64,000 bases of DNA from Patescibacteria group bacterium (lineage in GTDB: Bacteria > Patescibacteriota > Patescibacteriia > JACRDY01): NCBI GenBank assembly GCA_041653535.1, contig JBAZFH010000002.1:7209-71208 (forward strand), given 5' to 3'. The notes under the pieces are model-generated. The model saw nothing but the letters and a program-made list of their open reading frames with translations, was not told the DNA's origin and ran no database searches. The number at the start of each line of letters is the position of its first letter. Position 1 is the first letter of the stretch. The translations under genes were made by a program, and so were the position numbers. Of the stretch, positions 4,861-62,784 are shown piece by piece.

Positions 4861-5154
4861 CTAACAAAACTCGATTTTAAGCTCCCGACCAAACGCTTTA
4901 GCGATCTTTTCTAAAGTTCCGGTAGTAAGGTTTTGCCGACCAGACTCTATTCTGGCCAAATTACTTTGAGTTGTACCAATTTTCTGAGCCAACTGTAGCT
5001 GTGACATTTTTTTATTTTTTCTCAGCTGCAAAATTTGGTAAGCGACTTTCAATTGCTTGCCATAATAATCATAATGTTTTTTAAAATCATTATTTTTGAG
5101 CTGTTCTTGACGGTATCCCTCAAAACTAAACGATATCGATTTTGTTTTATTCAT
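4861..5154 (-). CDS. higA: HTH XRE-family antitoxin (HigA-like)
   Basis: Helix-turn-helix MSQLQLAQKIGTTQSNLARIESGRQN; start ATG overlaps stop TGA of upstream toxin gene (ATGA). Confidence 0.8.
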   Translation of the reverse strand: MNKTKSISFSFEGYRQEQLKNNDFKKHYDYYGKQLKVAYQILQLRKNKKMSQLQLAQKIGTTQSNLARIESGRQNLTTGTLEKIAKAFGRELKIEFC

Positions 5155-5525
5155 ATATTTTTTTTACTACTTAATACTTCGTCATAACGTTTAATCGCTA
5201 TATTAATTTCTTTTCTTGGCGTCTTTTTTGTTCTTTTCAAAAAAGCATGTAATAGAACTAATTTTTTATCAACAAAGGCGAAGTAAAATATTCGATGACG
5301 ATGTCGATCAAAATCAATCCGCAACTCCCTGATCTTACCAACGATGTGTCGAGAATATGGTTCATCTAGGTAGCCCTTATTTATTTTCAAAAAGTCTATA
5401 TATTTAACAATTTTAGCTCTCTGATTTATTGGCAAACCGTTCAAATACTCTAAAACCGGACAATAGCCGTTAGATCGTGCCCTATAAAAAACCACTTCGA
5501 ATTCCTTGTCATTATTATATATCAT
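5151..5525 (-). CDS. higB: type II toxin, HigB / phage Gp49-like (RelE superfamily)
   Basis: 124 aa; ...PVLEYLNGLPINQRAKIVKYIDFL...IRELRIDFDRHRHRIFYFAF..LVLLHAFLKRTKKTPRKEI fits the Gp49/HigB family pattern; toxin-first order with XRE antitoxin. Confidence 0.8.
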   Translation of the reverse strand: MIYNNDKEFEVVFYRARSNGYCPVLEYLNGLPINQRAKIVKYIDFLKINKGYLDEPYSRHIVGKIRELRIDFDRHRHRIFYFAFVDKKLVLLHAFLKRTKKTPRKEINIAIKRYDEVLSSKKNI

Positions 5526-5612
5526 ATATGATATATGTCAATATTGATCATAAATTAATAGTATCGTTTTTATTTAACCATAGAAAAGATAAAATTTTTC
5601 TAAACTTTTTGA

Positions 5613-29436: not shown

Positions 29437-29522
29437 AGGTAAAATATTTAGGGGCTAGTATTTAGTGACCAGAAAAAGACAACTACCAAATACCAAATAC
29501 TAAGACCTAAATACTAAAATGA

Positions 29523-44514: not shown

Positions 44515-45240
44515 ATGTCTGGACACTCTAAGTGGGCAACCACCAAAAGACAAAAATTTGCTACTGATGCCAAAAGATCAAACCTTTTTACCCGGCTGGC
44601 AAAAAACATCGCTTTAGCGGCAAAAGAGGGCGGTGGCGATCCAGAGATGAACTTTAAACTCCGTATTGCCATCGACAAGGCTAAAGAAGGCAATATGCCA
44701 AAAGACAATATCGAAAAAGCAGTAAAGCGTGGCACTGGCGAAGGCGGTGGAGCGGCATATGAAGAAATTTTTTACGAAGGCTTTGGTCCGGCTGGCAGCG
44801 CTTTTATTATTCAAGTGGTTACGGATAATAAAAATCGAGCAGCCTCTGAAATAAAACATATTTTTTCAACCAACGGCGGATCGCTGGGCAGCAGCAATAG
44901 CGTTTCCTGGATGTTTGATAAGGTAGGTGGAATTAAAGCGACTGCCGCCGATAGCCGTCCTAAAGAAGACGTCGAACTTAATGCTATTGATGCCGGCGCA
45001 ATAGATTTTGAATGGTTAGATGAAAAAACTATTTGGATATATACTGAGCCAAGCGGCCTACAAAAAGTAAAAACTGCTCTGGAAATAAGCGGTCTAGTTG
45101 TTTCCGACAGTGAGCTTGGCTATAAACCGAAAGAAAGCCTACTAGTAGAAGACGATATTCGTCCAGCCATGGAAAGAATGTATGACGCGCTGGACGAGGC
45201 AGAAGATGTCCAAAATTTTTGGAGCAACATGGCCGTTTAG
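44515..45240 (+). CDS. yebC: YebC/PmpR-family transcriptional regulator
   Basis: MSGHSKWATTKRQK... canonical N-terminus. Confidence 0.95.
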   Translation: MSGHSKWATTKRQKFATDAKRSNLFTRLAKNIALAAKEGGGDPEMNFKLRIAIDKAKEGNMPKDNIEKAVKRGTGEGGGAAYEEIFYEGFGPAGSAFIIQVVTDNKNRAASEIKHIFSTNGGSLGSSNSVSWMFDKVGGIKATAADSRPKEDVELNAIDAGAIDFEWLDEKTIWIYTEPSGLQKVKTALEISGLVVSDSELGYKPKESLLVEDDIRPAMERMYDALDEAEDVQNFWSNMAV

Positions 45241-45247
45241 TTGGTAG

Positions 45248-45270
45248 AGGGTAGTGAGTAGCGGGTAAAG
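45248..45270. repeat. left arm of imperfect inverted repeat (GGTAGTGAGTAGCGGGTAAAG) flanking four-helix-bundle cassette 1
   Basis: Partner arm at 45706..45738 (CTCACTACTCACTACCCGCTAC). Confidence 0.55.
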
Positions 45271-45281
45271 AGGGACGGTTA

Positions 45282-45653
45282 TTATGACCGTTCTTTTAGT
45301 TTTCTCAGAGAGCCATTTATTAATTTCTTGGCTACAACTGTTTGCTCGGCAACCTCCAAAAACCTCTCTTCGCTAATATAACCCAGGTCTCGAGAAGCCA
45401 ATAACTAACTTTGAATTTCAACCAGCGATCCTAAAGCGATAGAATAGAAATGGATTTTTTCCAACTTAGTCCTTCTACAAAAACCTTCGGCTATGTTTGA
45501 AGGGACGGAAACGGCCGCTCGACGCAGTTGGTCAACCAAGGAATATCTTTCTTCCCTAGGAAAATTACCAGTTGCCTTATAAATCAATAAAAGTAGTTTG
45601 TGAGCCTCCTGCCAAGTAGTCAGCTGATAAAACGACTGTATTTTTTTATTCAT
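45282..45653 (-). pseudogene. four-helix-bundle protein gene (TIGR02436 / 23S-rRNA-IVS-type) interrupted by in-frame TAG at 45405..45407
   Basis: 82-aa ORF MNKKIQSFYQLTTWQEAHKL...GSLVEIQS stops at TAG; same frame continues LLASRDLGYISEERFLEVAEQTVVAKKLINGSLRKLKERS* to give the expected ~123 aa. Confidence 0.6.
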
Positions 45654-45705
45654 AATATCGTTATTTTACAAAAGCAATCATTAAATCTTTCTAAACTTTC
45701 TTTAT

Positions 45706-45738
45706 ACTCACCACTCACTACTCACTACCCGCTACTAA
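45706..45738. repeat. right arm of inverted repeat flanking cassette 1
   Basis: ACTCACCACTCACTACTCACTACCCGCTACTAAAAA. Confidence 0.55.
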
Positions 45739-45983
45739 AAACCCCTTGCCGAATATAACTACTGATTTATTTTTAGATTTAAAAAATGACCCAATTAAAC
45801 TAGGGTTATTTTTATTAAATTGACGAAAATTAGTCTTTAAGCTAAGTTATAATGATATTTTTGAGTTAAATGGCTTGGTTGCTTAAGCCAAAAACAATCA
45901 AACCATTTACCTCAATGTTGAGGTAATCGCTAAGCCTGAAGGCGGATAATTTGGGCTGGTACTTTTTTCGAAGGAGGTTTGTC

Positions 45984-46691
45984 ATGGCGGGTAAAAATTT
46001 TCCTGTCGACGGCGAACTGTACAGGACCATTGATCGACGGATGATAGAGATTAAGCGTCAGCTTAATCAGGACGGTGGAAGTCCAATTGACCCCGAACGG
46101 GTGGCAGTAGATCTTCAAAAAATTATTGAATCTGCCGTCCAAGACAATCCGTGGCCGTTTGAACTGGTGACAGATTTCGGGTTGATCGTTGTGCCCGACA
46201 ACTACAATCACGCCACGCAATTAGCCAGCTTCCGATCAAAGTACCCGGAATTGTTTGGTAACCGTTCTCAAAATATGGTTGATTCTCGTTTCGCACTGGT
46301 TAGCCATGTTTTGCGACCAGGGGAAAAATTCTGGGTTTTGGGATTTAAAAATCTTAAAGCCTATCTTAGCCCCACAACCAACGAACAGCGTTTGGCTTTT
46401 ATTAAAAGTCAAGAAGGTTTTCTGGTTGGCGCCCAAGGTCTTACCCTAGTTTGGGAGCAACGGAGCCAACTGTTTTTACCTAGGCAACATTATGCGTCCT
46501 TGGACGTAAAAAAGGCCCTGCCGAGATTTCTTGGTCATGGCAGTAAAAGTCGTGCTGGCCACGGCACTATTGTGCCGATGTTGAATTTACTAGAAAAAGG
46601 CCAAACCGAGTTTGTGCCAATCACCTTTAATTGCAACCAGTACAGCTATTTCCTCGTTTTTTATCGGCGGCAGCCGTCATTAGACAAGTAG
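45984..46691 (+). CDS. hypothetical protein, GC-rich relative to surroundings
   Basis: Start ATG 45984 preceded by GGAGG RBS; hairpin-rich leader 45870-45960. Confidence 0.6.
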   Translation: MAGKNFPVDGELYRTIDRRMIEIKRQLNQDGGSPIDPERVAVDLQKIIESAVQDNPWPFELVTDFGLIVVPDNYNHATQLASFRSKYPELFGNRSQNMVDSRFALVSHVLRPGEKFWVLGFKNLKAYLSPTTNEQRLAFIKSQEGFLVGAQGLTLVWEQRSQLFLPRQHYASLDVKKALPRFLGHGSKSRAGHGTIVPMLNLLEKGQTEFVPITFNCNQYSYFLVFYRRQPSLDK

Positions 46692-46692
46692 A

Positions 46693-46820
46693 TAGCTCTC
46701 ACTACTCTTAGGTAATCAAGGGCGTTCGTTTAGTCGGACGCCCTATTTTTTATCCATAATATCGTTAATTTATAAAAACGATCATTAACTCACCACCCGC
46801 TACCCGCTACTAAAAAACCC
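46693..46820. repeat. decayed extra copy of cassette 1 right end (5' leader, ATG, 4 codons, stop, plus IR arm ACTCACCACCCGCTACCCGCTACTAAAAAACCC)
   Basis: CATAATATCGTTAATTTATAAAAACGATCATTAACTCACCAC matches the leader of the 45653 gene almost base for base. Confidence 0.45.
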
Positions 46821-46872
46821 TATTTTTTGATATAATTCTGATACTAATAAATACCACTTAAAAACCGATCTC

Positions 46873-47340
46873 ATGTTAATCCTCGGCATCGACCCTGGTT
46901 TTGCTGATACTGGCTGGGGTGTAATAGAAAAAAAAGGTAACGACCTAAGCTTGGTTGACTATGGGGTAATAAAAACCTCAACCAAACTTGATTTTATTGC
47001 TCGCCTGGAAATCATCCATCAGGACTTGACTAGAGTTATAAAAAAATTTAAGCCGGAGAAGGTCGCCGTCGAACAGCTTTTTTTTGCTAAAAACGTCAAA
47101 ACCGCTCTTCTTGTCGGTCAGGCTCGCGGCGTAGTGCTCCTTACTATCATGGAAGAAAAATTGCCGCTGCTGGAATATACTCCACTGCAAGTAAAGCAAG
47201 CGGTATGCTCCTACGGTCGGGCAGAAAAAACTCAAATCCAAAAAATGGTTAAGGTCTTGCTGCAGATGAAAGATATTCCACGTCCGGACGACGCTGCCGA
47301 CGCCTTGGCAATAGCCATTTGTTGCGCTAATAGCAACTAA
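46873..47340 (+). CDS. ruvC: crossover junction endodeoxyribonuclease RuvC
   Basis: LGIDPGFADTGWGVI... catalytic D/E residues conserved. Confidence 0.9.
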   Translation: MLILGIDPGFADTGWGVIEKKGNDLSLVDYGVIKTSTKLDFIARLEIIHQDLTRVIKKFKPEKVAVEQLFFAKNVKTALLVGQARGVVLLTIMEEKLPLLEYTPLQVKQAVCSYGRAEKTQIQKMVKVLLQMKDIPRPDDAADALAIAICCANSN

Positions 47341-60975: not shown

Positions 60976-62265
60976 TTATTTGATTATTTCCTTTTTCAGA
61001 TGCTCGATCACCTTGCGGTTGGTTAGGGATGTTGCTAGATAGCGGCGATATCCCGGAGATGATAGATTATCTGCAACTTCCGGACTTTGACCATAAACTT
61101 TTTTTATTTCTTCCAGCTCTTTATCTATTTCCTCATCGGTTGCCCAAAGTTTATTTTGATCCGCCACCTTGCGGGCAATCAGTGCTGTCTGGACGCGTTT
61201 TTTTGCTTCCGGCAGTATTTCTTTCTCCAGTTCTTGCTCGGTCTTTTTTAGATGTTTCAGATAATCTTCAAACTTTAATCCTTGATGTTCAATACTGTGT
61301 TCCAGCTCATGAATCATTTTGTGCGCTTCCGCATGGATCATGCTTTCCGGCAGTTCGGAAAATTTAGCTATTTTAATCAACTCATCCAGCATTTCTATTT
61401 CTTGTTTTTGGTTTTCCTTTTCCTCTGCTTCATGGAGTAGATTGTGTTCGATACCTTTTCTTACGTCTTCGATTGTTTGGTAGCCACCGAGAGTCTTGGC
61501 AAAGTCATTATTTAGTTCCGGCAACTCGCGTTTGAAAGTTTCTTTTACTTCCACTTTAAATTTAGCGAGTTTGCCTGCTAGATTTTTGGCATGATAGTCT
61601 TCCGGAAAGCGCAGCTCAAATTCTTTATTTTCATTTTGTGACATGCCGACTATTTGTTCTTCAAATCCTGGGATAAAGCGACCTTCGCCAATAACCAACG
61701 GAAAGTTTTTGCTTGAGCCGCCTTCGATAGCCACGCCGTCGACAAAAACGTCAAAATTCACATTAACTTTGTCGCCCTTTTCCAGCGGACCGAGTTTAAC
61801 GGTTTCTTTGGCGTGAATGTTTTGTAGGTTGGTTAAAATCGTTTCAATTTCTTTAGAATCAATCTTAACGTCTTTTTTGGCAACTTTAATTTTTGAATAA
61901 TCGTCGAGAGTTACTTCCGGCAGCAGGGTGATGATGGCTTTGTAAACCAAAGGATTGTCTGGAGCCATTTTCTCGATATTTATTTGTGGTGATCCAACCA
62001 CGTCGGTGTTAGGCAGCTCTTTTTCCAGAACTTCATAAAGGGTTTTGCCGATTATGTTGTCAGCAGCATGTTGGTAGATAGTCATTTCACCCACTTCTTT
62101 TTTTACCACGTCATAAGGCGCTTTACCCGGGCGAAACCCGGCAATACTTTTCTCAGTAGAAATAATTTCCGCGGCCTTGATCAGATAAGGTTTGGTTTCT
62201 TCGGGAGACACTTCAATGGTAAATTCGATCTGGGCTTTGGATAGTTCTTTTTTAGAGATATTCAT
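60976..62265 (-). CDS. tig: trigger factor
   Basis: Ribosome-binding N-domain, FKBP-like PPIase region (GFRPGKAP...), C-terminal arm. Confidence 0.9.
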   Translation of the reverse strand: MNISKKELSKAQIEFTIEVSPEETKPYLIKAAEIISTEKSIAGFRPGKAPYDVVKKEVGEMTIYQHAADNIIGKTLYEVLEKELPNTDVVGSPQINIEKMAPDNPLVYKAIITLLPEVTLDDYSKIKVAKKDVKIDSKEIETILTNLQNIHAKETVKLGPLEKGDKVNVNFDVFVDGVAIEGGSSKNFPLVIGEGRFIPGFEEQIVGMSQNENKEFELRFPEDYHAKNLAGKLAKFKVEVKETFKRELPELNNDFAKTLGGYQTIEDVRKGIEHNLLHEAEEKENQKQEIEMLDELIKIAKFSELPESMIHAEAHKMIHELEHSIEHQGLKFEDYLKHLKKTEQELEKEILPEAKKRVQTALIARKVADQNKLWATDEEIDKELEEIKKVYGQSPEVADNLSSPGYRRYLATSLTNRKVIEHLKKEIIK

Positions 62266-62269
62266 AAAT

Positions 62270-62303
62270 TAGTGGATAGCAGCTAGTGGCTAGCAGCTAG
62301 GGT
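62270..62303. repeat. left arm of inverted repeat (TAGTGGATAGCAGCTAGTGGCTAGCAGCTAGGG) flanking cassette 2
   Basis: Partner 62753..62784 CCTAGCCGCTAGCTACTAGTCACTAGTAGCTA. Confidence 0.55.
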
Positions 62304-62338
62304 TTAATAATATTTAATAAAAAGTTTAGCAATATTTA

Positions 62339-62764
62339 ATGTTTTATTTGTTATTTTTGTGGTATCTAACTAATATTTGTAAAGCGTATGAACAAAAATC
62401 TTGTAAGGATTTAATTGTTTGGCAGAAAGCGATCAGGTTAACCGTAGAGGTCTACAAGCTAACCGAGTCTTTTCCAAAAAATGAGCTGTTTGGTCTGACA
62501 TCGCAAATGCGTCGGGCTGCCGTATCAATAGTTTCTAATATAGCCGAGGGCTATGAGAGAAGGAGTCAAAGAGAGTTTTTAAGGTTTTTATTAATATCCT
62601 TTGGTTCGGCTGCCGAACTAGAAACGCAAATGATAATTGCCAAGAGCTTAAAGTATAGCAATCAAAAGGCTTTTGTAGAGTCAGAGCAGTTGCTATCGGA
62701 AACCTCCAAGATAACTTTCGCTTTTATCAAAAAGATTAAACTCCGGTTATTTCCTAGCCGCTAG
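62339..62764 (+). CDS. four-helix-bundle protein (TIGR02436 / rRNA-IVS-type), intact
   Basis: ...DLIVWQKAIRLTVEVYKLTESFPKNELFGLTSQMRRAAVSIVSNIAEGYERRSQREFLRFLLISFGSAAELETQMIIAKSL...; N-terminal 20 codons of ORF are probably leader, so the true start is likely later. Confidence 0.75.
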   Translation: MFYLLFLWYLTNICKAYEQKSCKDLIVWQKAIRLTVEVYKLTESFPKNELFGLTSQMRRAAVSIVSNIAEGYERRSQREFLRFLLISFGSAAELETQMIIAKSLKYSNQKAFVESEQLLSETSKITFAFIKKIKLRLFPSR

Positions 62765-62784
62765 CTACTAGTCACTAGTAGCTA
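62753..62784. repeat. right arm of inverted repeat flanking cassette 2 (overlaps stop codon)
   Basis: See left arm. Confidence 0.55.

Follow-up and report, generated by a model that had tools for sequence, protein, structure and literature searches.

An intervening sequence-like cassette with inverted heptamer arrays around a four-helix-bundle gene between yebC and ruvC of a Patescibacteria genome

The DNA analysed here, hereafter the window, is a stretch of 64,000 nt from the genome of a Patescibacteria group bacterium (GenBank assembly GCA_041653535.1, contig JBAZFH010000002.1, positions 7,209 to 71,208 of the forward strand). In this window, yebC and ruvC, both confirmed by Pfam, are separated by a spacer of 1,632 bp, a distance that a preliminary description of the same DNA had estimated at about 1.6 kb. 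The spacer harbours a gene for a four-helix-bundle (4HB) protein, located on the minus strand and antisense to yebC and ruvC, with an arm of tandem heptamers on either side, as well as a plus-strand gene referred to below as the orphan gene (Table 1). The cassette formed by the 4HB gene and its arms starts at the very end of yebC, whose TAG stop codon (45238-45240) doubles as the opening triplet of the first heptamer. The neighbours at this locus are pgi, yebC, ruvC and a penicillin-binding protein (PBP) gene. No rRNA was detected in the 64-kb window by Rfam in gathering mode, which matched only three tRNAs, and Rfam searches of positions 45150-46950 in E-value mode returned chance-level matches only.

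Profile searches placed the 4HB gene in the family PF05635/TIGR02436, above the curated cut-offs and over the full domain: the PF05635 match (E 4e-33) scored 114 bits against a cut-off of 33.8 and covered profile positions 2-106 of 106, and the TIGR02436 match reached 115 bits against a cut-off of 24. The preliminary description had recognised a 4HB gene of the family known from intervening sequences (IVSs) of rRNA in this spacer, and these scores confirm it. The nearest solved structure by sequence is that of XCC0516 (PDB 2GSC, E 2e-28), with five chains in the entry, a protein described as a homopentamer (PMC4990558). The gene resembles the free-standing members of the family, such as XCC0516, in exceeding the TIGR02436 and PF05635 cut-offs by a wide margin, but those have been catalogued as proteins only, and the reading frame in the window carries a stop codon.

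This in-frame TAG occupies codon 83 (45405-45407), and the frame of about 120 codons that is typical of the family is therefore not intact in the window gene. The corresponding column is Gln in at least 90% of 35 aligned relatives. Since the ortholog described below has CAG at this position, the stop arose by a single C-to-T change of Gln83. Recoding of TAG was considered and ruled out, TAG being an ordinary stop here: it ends 13 of 35 long open reading frames (ORFs) of this genome, including yebC, and also the orphan gene. Records of the truncated 82-aa product exist at NCBI, JGI, Logan and ENA, four sources in all, its NCBI name being 'MAG: four helix bundle protein [Patescibacteria group bacterium]', and the contigs fetched from Logan, JGI and ENA are 100% identical to the window; the interruption is therefore no sequencing error. 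Because the rest of the frame is intact and its C-terminal piece still matches the family (E 1e-12), the gene is a recent pseudogene.

The two arms are imperfect inverted repeats. A repeat search paired 45241-45266 with 45713-45738 (26 nt, 85% complementary), and Tandem Repeats Finder (TRF) reported a period of 7 with 4.6 copies at 45705-45736, in line with the TAG-rich imperfect inverted repeats that the preliminary description had seen on both sides of the gene. The arm unit is a TAGNGNG heptamer, here TAGYGRG. A search for the 17-mer unit pair with up to 3 mismatches returned five occurrences in the window for 0.05 expected; the repeat units put forward earlier are real, and within the window all their matches fall in the yebC-ruvC locus. 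Between the 5' arm and the ATG of the 4HB gene lies a leader of 46 nt, in which TGTAAAAT, located 9 nt before the ATG, is by eye a possible extended -10 element of a promoter; a consensus scan made no call on it.

When the 515-nt cassette RNA was folded, the minimum-free-energy structure was closed by the arm stem, the 3' arm pairing with 45700-45740. An arms-only hairpin with a short linker reached -37.7 kcal/mol for the minus strand and -41.0 kcal/mol for the plus strand (z about -6.5), and none of 200 shuffles was as good. The stem proposed for 45241-45745 in the preliminary description is thus supported most clearly at the level of the arms; the whole-cassette fold only marginally beats its shuffles (z -1.9). 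Since the arms are an inverted repeat, the stem is possible in transcripts of either strand. Complementary termini able to form a stem, a defining feature of IVSs, are accordingly present in the window and likewise in the ortholog, and tandem heptamers lie in the stem region 5' of the ORF, as in the Coxiella IVS. Two other readings of the heptamers were abandoned. A G-rich 5' and C-rich 3' polarity, taken as proof of a strand-specific function, was withdrawn, an inverted repeat showing this polarity on both strands; and a role as a three-frame stop 'insulator' fits the window, where TAG recurs every 7 nt, but many loci use stop-free units.

The same bracket was found in a main comparison set of the 80 loci with the most similar 4HB genes, drawn from species-representative genomes and mostly from Patescibacteria, with 79 loci, or 78 arms on each side, scored. 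In nearly all 80, the 4HB gene is bracketed by tandem heptamers that abut or overlap its ATG and stop codon. Lag-7 autocorrelation was 0.51 in both arms, compared with about 0.28 at other lags (79 loci); a period of seven gave the best fit for 65 of the 78 5' arms and for 72 of the 78 3' arms, and the modal number of units was 4 per arm. Period-7 arrays occurred at 5.1 per kb within 90 nt of the 4HB gene ends and at 0.15 per kb elsewhere in the same loci, a 35-fold difference. The unit itself varies by locus (GAATTAT, GTATTAA, GTAGTAA, GAGACAT and others), and the two arms of one locus match. The complementarity score averaged 34 for arms of the same locus and 18 for arms taken from different loci. 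When the 5' consensus unit was compared with the reverse-complemented 3' unit, 6.1 of 7 positions agreed within a locus and 4.4 of 7 between loci. A core G-W-A-T is common to the units, its G at position 1 being partly fixed by the phasing procedure.

Covariation between arms was quantified by a formal pair count in which the arms of 37 loci were phased independently, three units being considered per arm, and compared with 500 shuffles. Paired cells amounted to 82.4% of the total, compared with 62.1% in shuffles and 37-41% in slid controls; double-sided changes were seen in 152 cells versus 60 in shuffles; and the covariation score was 0.49 versus 0.17. None of the 500 shuffles reached the observed value on any of these three measures. 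Position 2 of the unit, for instance, toggles between A:U (22 loci) and U:A (13 loci). The arms of other copies therefore do covary, as the preliminary description would have them do, at the level of the unit consensus. The arm duplex is about 28 bp long and imperfect, with 84% Watson-Crick pairs.

The placement of these cassettes is equally regular: 57 are co-directional with both neighbouring genes and only 4, including those of the window and its ortholog, are antisense to both. On either side, about 35 nt separate the cassette gene from its neighbour, a distance that the arms fill, and the median distance from arm to ATG in the other loci is -1 nt, most cassettes having no leader. Since the cassettes are co-directional, their spacers are filled by the arms and the arm abuts the ATG, this anatomy is as would be expected of a promoter-less unit riding on host operon transcripts. 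The window cassette, antisense and with its 46-nt leader, is atypical in this respect; a comparison of antisense orientation with leader presence gave mixed results from few cases.

A second comparison set comprised 37 4HB loci on plasmids or viral contigs, for which tblastn searches against plasmids were among the sources. These searches identified 4HB genes in cyanobacteria, Riemerella, Gemmatirosa and Azospirillum. In 29 of the 37 loci the complementarity of the flanks exceeded that of all 100 shuffles, and in 24 one flank or both showed a clear period-7 array. Inverted arms were present in the Calothrix, Picosynechococcus and Riemerella cassettes, and the units flanking cyanobacterial 4HB genes included GGGTGTA in Calothrix and AAAGCTA in Pseudanabaena. 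Two cassettes lie in line within cas operons, in the order cas6, 4HB, cas4 on a Pseudanabaena plasmid (L173) and cas10, 4HB, cmr3 on a Picosynechococcus plasmid (L174). The AAAGCYA arrays of L173 exceed 15 copies and are direct, not inverted. Taken together, most of about 115 other loci show the same bracket around a gene of the 4HB family, which suggests that a single element class, widespread but little described, is involved.

In 23S rRNA, IVSs are inserted at helices 9, 25 and 45. The link between these insertions and the cassettes is direct in one case: the 4HB ORF of the Azospirillum lipoferum plasmid is located inside a large-subunit (LSU) rRNA gene (530 bits, model positions 862-1670) and flanked by inverted GAKGACR heptamers, which makes this locus a bona fide 23S IVS with the same bracket. 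The rRNA IVSs and their S23p ORFs go back to papers of the early 1990s cited in PMC4990558. According to the same source, the IVS of Coxiella sits in helix 45 and carries tandem GACAGAT heptamers before the S23p ATG, with RNase III (ribonuclease III) cutting at the first repeat; the copy number of the heptamer is strain-variable and the S23p ORF is decaying (PMC4990558). Insertions in rRNA genes of the candidate phyla radiation (CPR) also occasionally encode a 4HB/IVS protein (PMC11270868). The window cassette thus resembles the 23S IVSs of Coxiella, Leptospira and Azospirillum by a PF05635 ORF in a loop, inverted termini that close the stem, heptamers in tandem from the base of the stem towards the ATG (Coxiella, GACAGAT; Azospirillum, GAKGACR) and decay of the ORF in some hosts; an architecture shared with 23S IVSs, as claimed in the preliminary description, is therefore well founded. 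It differs from them in lying outside rRNA, between yebC and ruvC, in its antisense orientation and 46-nt leader, and in that excision by RNase III has been demonstrated for the rRNA versions only. In the searchable literature, no general description of heptamer arrays around 4HB genes was found, the only mention being that for Coxiella.

The history of the insertion could be traced by comparison with a relative. The closest homolog of the window 4HB protein (P0001; 121 aa, intact, 70% identical) is encoded between yebC and ruvC of this relative (L004), also in antisense, with TAGTGAG/TAGCGGG heptamer arms on both sides and without the orphan gene. Between the window and the relative, yebC and ruvC are each 75% identical, pgi is 65% identical and the 4HB protein 70%; since the latter value is like those of its neighbours, the 4HB protein was under purifying selection after the split, before its recent decay. 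In contrast, none of 80 more distant yebC loci (identity up to 55%) had a 4HB gene; ruvC was located in 63 of them, 0-590 nt after yebC and usually abutting or overlapping it. Conversely, none of 80 other 4HB loci was at a yebC-ruvC site. Being present in a relative with about 70-75% identity and absent from the 80 distant yebC loci, the cassette is an old insertion. The comparison of related loci suggested earlier thus favours an insert with a presence/absence pattern. Of the notion of a possibly mobile element class, the class holds, with loci in 79 other genomes and with 29 of the 37 plasmid or viral loci; no sign of recent mobility was seen, the site being common to the relative and the two cassettes of the window being only 38% identical. 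Inspection of the junctions by eye, in both the window and the ortholog, brought no target-site duplication to light, although no dedicated search was made.

The 5' end of the cassette is present twice in the window, the gene-proximal copy (copy 1, 45642-45746) and a copy next to ruvC (copy 2, 46746-46821) sharing 87-88% identity. Copy 2 consists of an arm (46788-46813) that reads TAG TAGCGGG TAGCGGG TGGTGAG, a leader that shows a gap of 23 nt when aligned with copy 1, and a stub of the gene, ATG GAT AAA AAA TAG (46757-46743, minus strand), in which three codons stand between the ATG and the stop. When both copies and the ortholog were aligned together, it was the outer flank of copy 2 that matched the ruvC-side flank of the ortholog; that of the gene-proximal copy did not. 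Copy 2 is for this reason the ancestral 5' end, still beside ruvC, and copy 1 a duplicated arm and leader kept with the gene; a segment of about 1.1 kb with the orphan gene separates the two. The 'decayed second copy' of the preliminary description is therefore a genuine repeat of arm and leader, not a second cassette but the displaced ancestral 5' end of the first.

On balance, we favour the interpretation that the yebC-ruvC element is a cassette of the IVS type located outside rRNA, and that its arm stem loops it out of host transcripts and is probably a substrate of RNase III. This was in essence the central idea of the preliminary description, which proved largely right, its reading of the second copy being wrong. 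The cassette would consist of a promoter-poor 4HB gene of about 120 codons between two inverted arrays of about 4 tandem heptamers, whose arms could base-pair in any transcript that crosses it, on either strand; the pairing potential itself was found by folding. Here, the crossing transcript would be a read-through from yebC to ruvC and also any 4HB transcript starting outside the 5' arm. A duplex of 22-28 bp would then loop the cassette out of the host RNA and be open to RNase III, which is known to cut the rRNA versions. Because of such a duplex, insertion might be tolerated inside an operon as it is within an rRNA helix. In this genome, the element is in decay: Gln83 has been changed to TAG, and the segment of about 1.1 kb splits the ancestral 5' arm and leader from the duplicated one.

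Several observations weigh against this looped-out, IVS-type cassette. RNase III cleavage and RNA processing have been demonstrated for rRNA cassettes only, and a signature-motif search found no rnc gene in the 64-kb window, a result that is uninformative for the whole genome. The gene runs antisense to its neighbours, and its 46-nt leader contains a possible promoter, so that the 5' arm may be absent from its own mRNA. When folded as a whole, the cassette does hardly better than shuffled sequences, as given above, and four plasmid or viral loci (L173, L176, L203 and L211) have direct instead of inverted arrays. Permuting the order of units in one arm gave equal complementarity, variant units not being mirrored between arms; mismatches were not enriched in G:U (57 G:U-type, 70 A:C-type and 220 other); and unit positions 5 and 7 are often unpaired. 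Consequently, what is conserved is a pair of inverted arrays of one unit family, and no helix with exact compensation of changes. The covariation seen between units could reflect concerted evolution of the DNA as well as pairing of RNA.

Some of these observations lend weight to the idea, unlikely in our view, that the heptamers are periodic binding sites on RNA or DNA for the pentameric 4HB protein or a host factor, complementarity being secondary. The 4-5 tandem units would be bound in the manner of ring proteins such as TRAP, which recognises repeated triplets, and the protein would regulate or package its own transcript. The strict period of 7 nt, with arms of about 4 units, a G-W-A-T core that recurs from locus to locus and does not change within an array, in contrast to the variable positions 5 and 7, the unmirrored order of variant units, the missing G:U signature and the direct arrays on both sides in L173, L176, L203 and L211 all agree with such sites, as do the five chains of XCC0516 in 2GSC, a homopentamer according to PMC4990558. 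Similarity of the heptamers also correlates with that of the proteins (Mantel r 0.22, none of 2000 permutations as high), but this signal is expected from common descent too, and the conserved G at position 1 is partly a product of phasing. The heptamers moreover diverge fast relative to the protein, which makes tight co-specificity unlikely: unit similarity is 4.7 of 7 at 60-70% protein identity, against about 4.4 between loci, and falls to 4.2 of 7 at 40-50% identity. Most loci, finally, do have complementary arms. Mobility at the DNA level, with the arms as terminal inverted repeats for transposition or recombination, gene-less hairpins resembling miniature inverted-repeat transposable elements (MITEs) and a 4HB protein serving mobility, is another improbable account. 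It would explain the presence/absence polymorphism at yebC-ruvC, the many different sites occupied, including rRNA helices and cas operons, and the existence of gene-less heptamer hairpins; arm covariation is equally compatible with concerted evolution of DNA, and mobility of IVSs has been proposed in the literature (PMC4990558). Against it, no transposase, integrase or reverse transcriptase (RT) is found nearby, the junctions, which were read by eye and not searched specifically, showed no target-site duplication, and no near-identical copies were found, the window pair being as divergent as stated and the heptamers of two Uhrbacteria cassettes (L033 and L066) differing. The site has also been stable across a divergence to about 70-75% identity, and the 57 to 4 excess of co-directional cassettes points to dependence on host transcription.

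The 4HB fold family also includes the distantly related Avd proteins, and the gene might in principle be the Avd accessory gene of a diversity-generating retroelement (DGR) or a remnant of one, a reading that we regard as very improbable. Similarity to Avd is weak (PF22296, E 0.004; phrog_3206, E 2e-9), and the 27 bits obtained with the equivalog NF033474 are far below its cut-off of 80. Neither an RT nor a pair of template and variable repeats (TR/VR) was found in or around the spacer, the only long direct repeats being those of the arm and leader duplication, and the neighbours are pgi, yebC, ruvC and the PBP gene. To our knowledge, heptamer arms have not been described as a feature of DGRs. 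That the repeats are chance low complexity or an assembly artefact in ordinary intergenic DNA with a stray gene, for which the poor z of the whole-cassette fold might be cited, can be regarded as already refuted by the excess of the unit motif over expectation (5 versus 0.05), the identical sequence in independent assemblies from different sources, the same arms in the ortholog and the class-wide recurrence of the architecture with covariation.

Other small repeat systems offer partial likenesses to the IVS-type cassette. Cyanobacterial genomes contain short tandemly repeated repetitive (STRR) sequences, which are tandem 7-nt repeats, intergenic in operons, and are described as dispersed and without an associated gene. 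The cyanobacterial 4HB genes recovered here are flanked by just such 7-nt arrays, and no literature linking STRRs to 4HB genes was found. With MITEs, repetitive extragenic palindromic (REP) elements and integron cassettes, the cassettes share a small, promoter-poor design, boundaries capable of forming hairpins, gene-less derivatives and a position between genes; in contrast to these, they have no transposase or integrase, no single 3' site of the attC type and no identical copies in view, and the arms of the window class are tandem heptamers with a locus-specific sequence. An integron gene cassette is not indicated, there being no integrase among the neighbours and tandem heptamers on both sides of the ORF; nor, within the window, is a transposon or MITE, the spacer lacking a transposase and the second cassette being only 38% identical with other arm units.

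Although IVSs and their S23p ORFs were described decades ago, no origin or function has become accepted for them. This picture is changed by a bracket that recurs across phyla, by the in-line placement on the same strand in Patescibacteria and by the datable insertion between yebC and ruvC, the rRNA IVS thereby becoming one instance of a general element. A bolder generalisation, possible but in our judgment doubtful, is that all PF05635 4HB genes are cargo of one widespread, hitherto unrecognised RNA-level cassette class with inverted heptamer arrays, which would excise or insulate itself by means of heptamers recognised by a protein or a ribonuclease. If true, this class would span rRNA IVSs, Patescibacteria operons, cyanobacterial cas operons and phage-like contigs; the heptamers, with their GWAT core in Patescibacteria, would be recognised at regular intervals, either by the pentameric protein or by a ribonuclease of the host; any host transcript, mRNA or rRNA, would be one from which the element can excise or insulate itself; and the classical rRNA IVS would be the special case noticed first. 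On a more practical level, a large screen has scored '23S rRNA IVP' as CRISPR-associated (PMC10910872), which may reflect cassettes inserted in cas operons; such cassettes call for caution in guilt-by-association screens. For annotation, heptamer arrays provide a cheap marker for cassettes and their gene-less remnants.

Table 1. Features of the yebC-ruvC locus and related elements in the window.
Feature	Position	Strand	Basis and remarks
yebC (TACO1/YebC family)	44515-45240	+	Pfam PF20772 + PF01709, E 1e-47
3' arm (relative to the 4HB gene), five tandem heptamers	45238-45272	-	Plus strand: TAGTTGG TAGAGGG TAGTGAG TAGCGGG TAAAGAG
Putative terminator-like hairpin just 3' of yebC and arm	45269-45297	+	Consensus scan; contains the 4HB stop TAA (45282-45284, minus)
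4HB gene, PF05635/TIGR02436, 123 codons	45282-45653	-	Pfam and NCBIfam profiles
Leader between 5' arm and 4HB ATG, 46 nt	45654-45699	-	Sequence; aligned with copy 2 and ortholog
5' arm, gene-proximal (copy 1)	45700-45746	-	Minus strand (45740-45700): TAG TAGCGGG TAGTGAG TAGTGAG TGGTGAG TATAAAG
Upstream region of orphan gene	45747-45983	+	Fold z -1.4; Rfam chance-level matches only
Orphan gene, 235 aa, WC310_02060	45984-46691	+	Alternative TTG start 45951
Putative intrinsic-terminator-like hairpin of orphan gene	46719-46744	+	Consensus scan
Ancestral 5' end (copy 2; arm, leader and stub)	46743-46821	-	Direct repeats; three-way alignment
ruvC	46873-47340	+	Pfam PF02075, E 8e-55
Gene-less heptamer hairpin, GTATTTR units	29450-29522	-	TRF period 7, 5 copies; fold z -3.6
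Second 4HB cassette	62270-62784	+	hmmsearch E 5e-36; annotated ORF 62339-62764

The orphan gene is a passenger inserted in the 5' end of the cassette. Its protein had no match in Pfam, NCBIfam, PHROG or PADLOC, and three weak homologs were encoded in unrelated contexts without a 4HB gene or heptamer arms. The AlphaFold (AF2) model, with a predicted local distance difference test (pLDDT) value of 37, was too poor for a fold search. Two properties attributed to this gene in the preliminary description did not hold: it is not notably GC-rich (43-48% GC, against 41-47% for yebC and ruvC), and the hairpins of its leader are not significant, 17 of 200 shuffles folding as well as the upstream region and Rfam giving no match. 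The N-terminus of the orphan protein (window 45984-46140; about 55 residues or 23% of its length, YRTIDRRMIEIKRQLNQDGGSP...) is 64% identical to that of P0124 (L168 3001-3786), an otherwise different hypothetical protein from Saccharimonadia, which suggests that the two share a small N-terminal module.

On the ruvC side, an extended -10-like element (TGnTATAAT) precedes the ATG of ruvC by about 30-40 nt, immediately beyond the arm of the cassette, and is kept in the window (46822-46872) and in the relative (L004 3863-3920); it was read by eye, the consensus scan making no call. Since this element is kept in both genomes outside the arm, ruvC probably has its own promoter downstream of the insertion.

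The second 4HB cassette of the window is also antisense, lying between two minus-strand genes. Its 5' arm, TAGTGGA TAGCAGC TAGTGGC TAGCAGC TAGGG, begins 5 nt from the start codon of a 429-aa gene (60976-62265) and is followed by a leader of about 90 nt, and its 3' arm, CTAGCCG CTAGCTA CTAGTCA CTAGTAG CTA, overlaps the stop codon. In the structure of minimum free energy, the two arms are paired. The level of identity between the two 4HB proteins was obtained by BLASTP, and their arm units differ. The gene-less heptamer hairpin likewise lies between two minus-strand genes, has no ORF inside and may derive from a cassette that has lost its gene, much as there are IVSs without an ORF.

Heptamer arrays were also encountered in other arrangements. 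Several of the loci compared carry further heptamer-array pairs. One locus (L010) has four 4HB ORFs within 6 kb, and in another (L019, 4082-4272) an array of 14 CATAACG copies faces an inverted partner at a distance of about 60 nt, the interval holding no ORF. The two cassettes of one Uhrbacteria genome mentioned above have different heptamers. In the window, a period-7 array (GTRATTA, plus strand) at 2034-2069 abuts the ATG of a 117-aa coiled-coil ORF that does not belong to PF05635 (1682-2035, minus strand), with no partner arm seen on the other side of this ORF. An AT-rich palindromic array of period 7/14 at 5509-5537 lies directly upstream of a 124-aa ORF (5151-5525, minus strand) and may be the operator of a small two-gene module.

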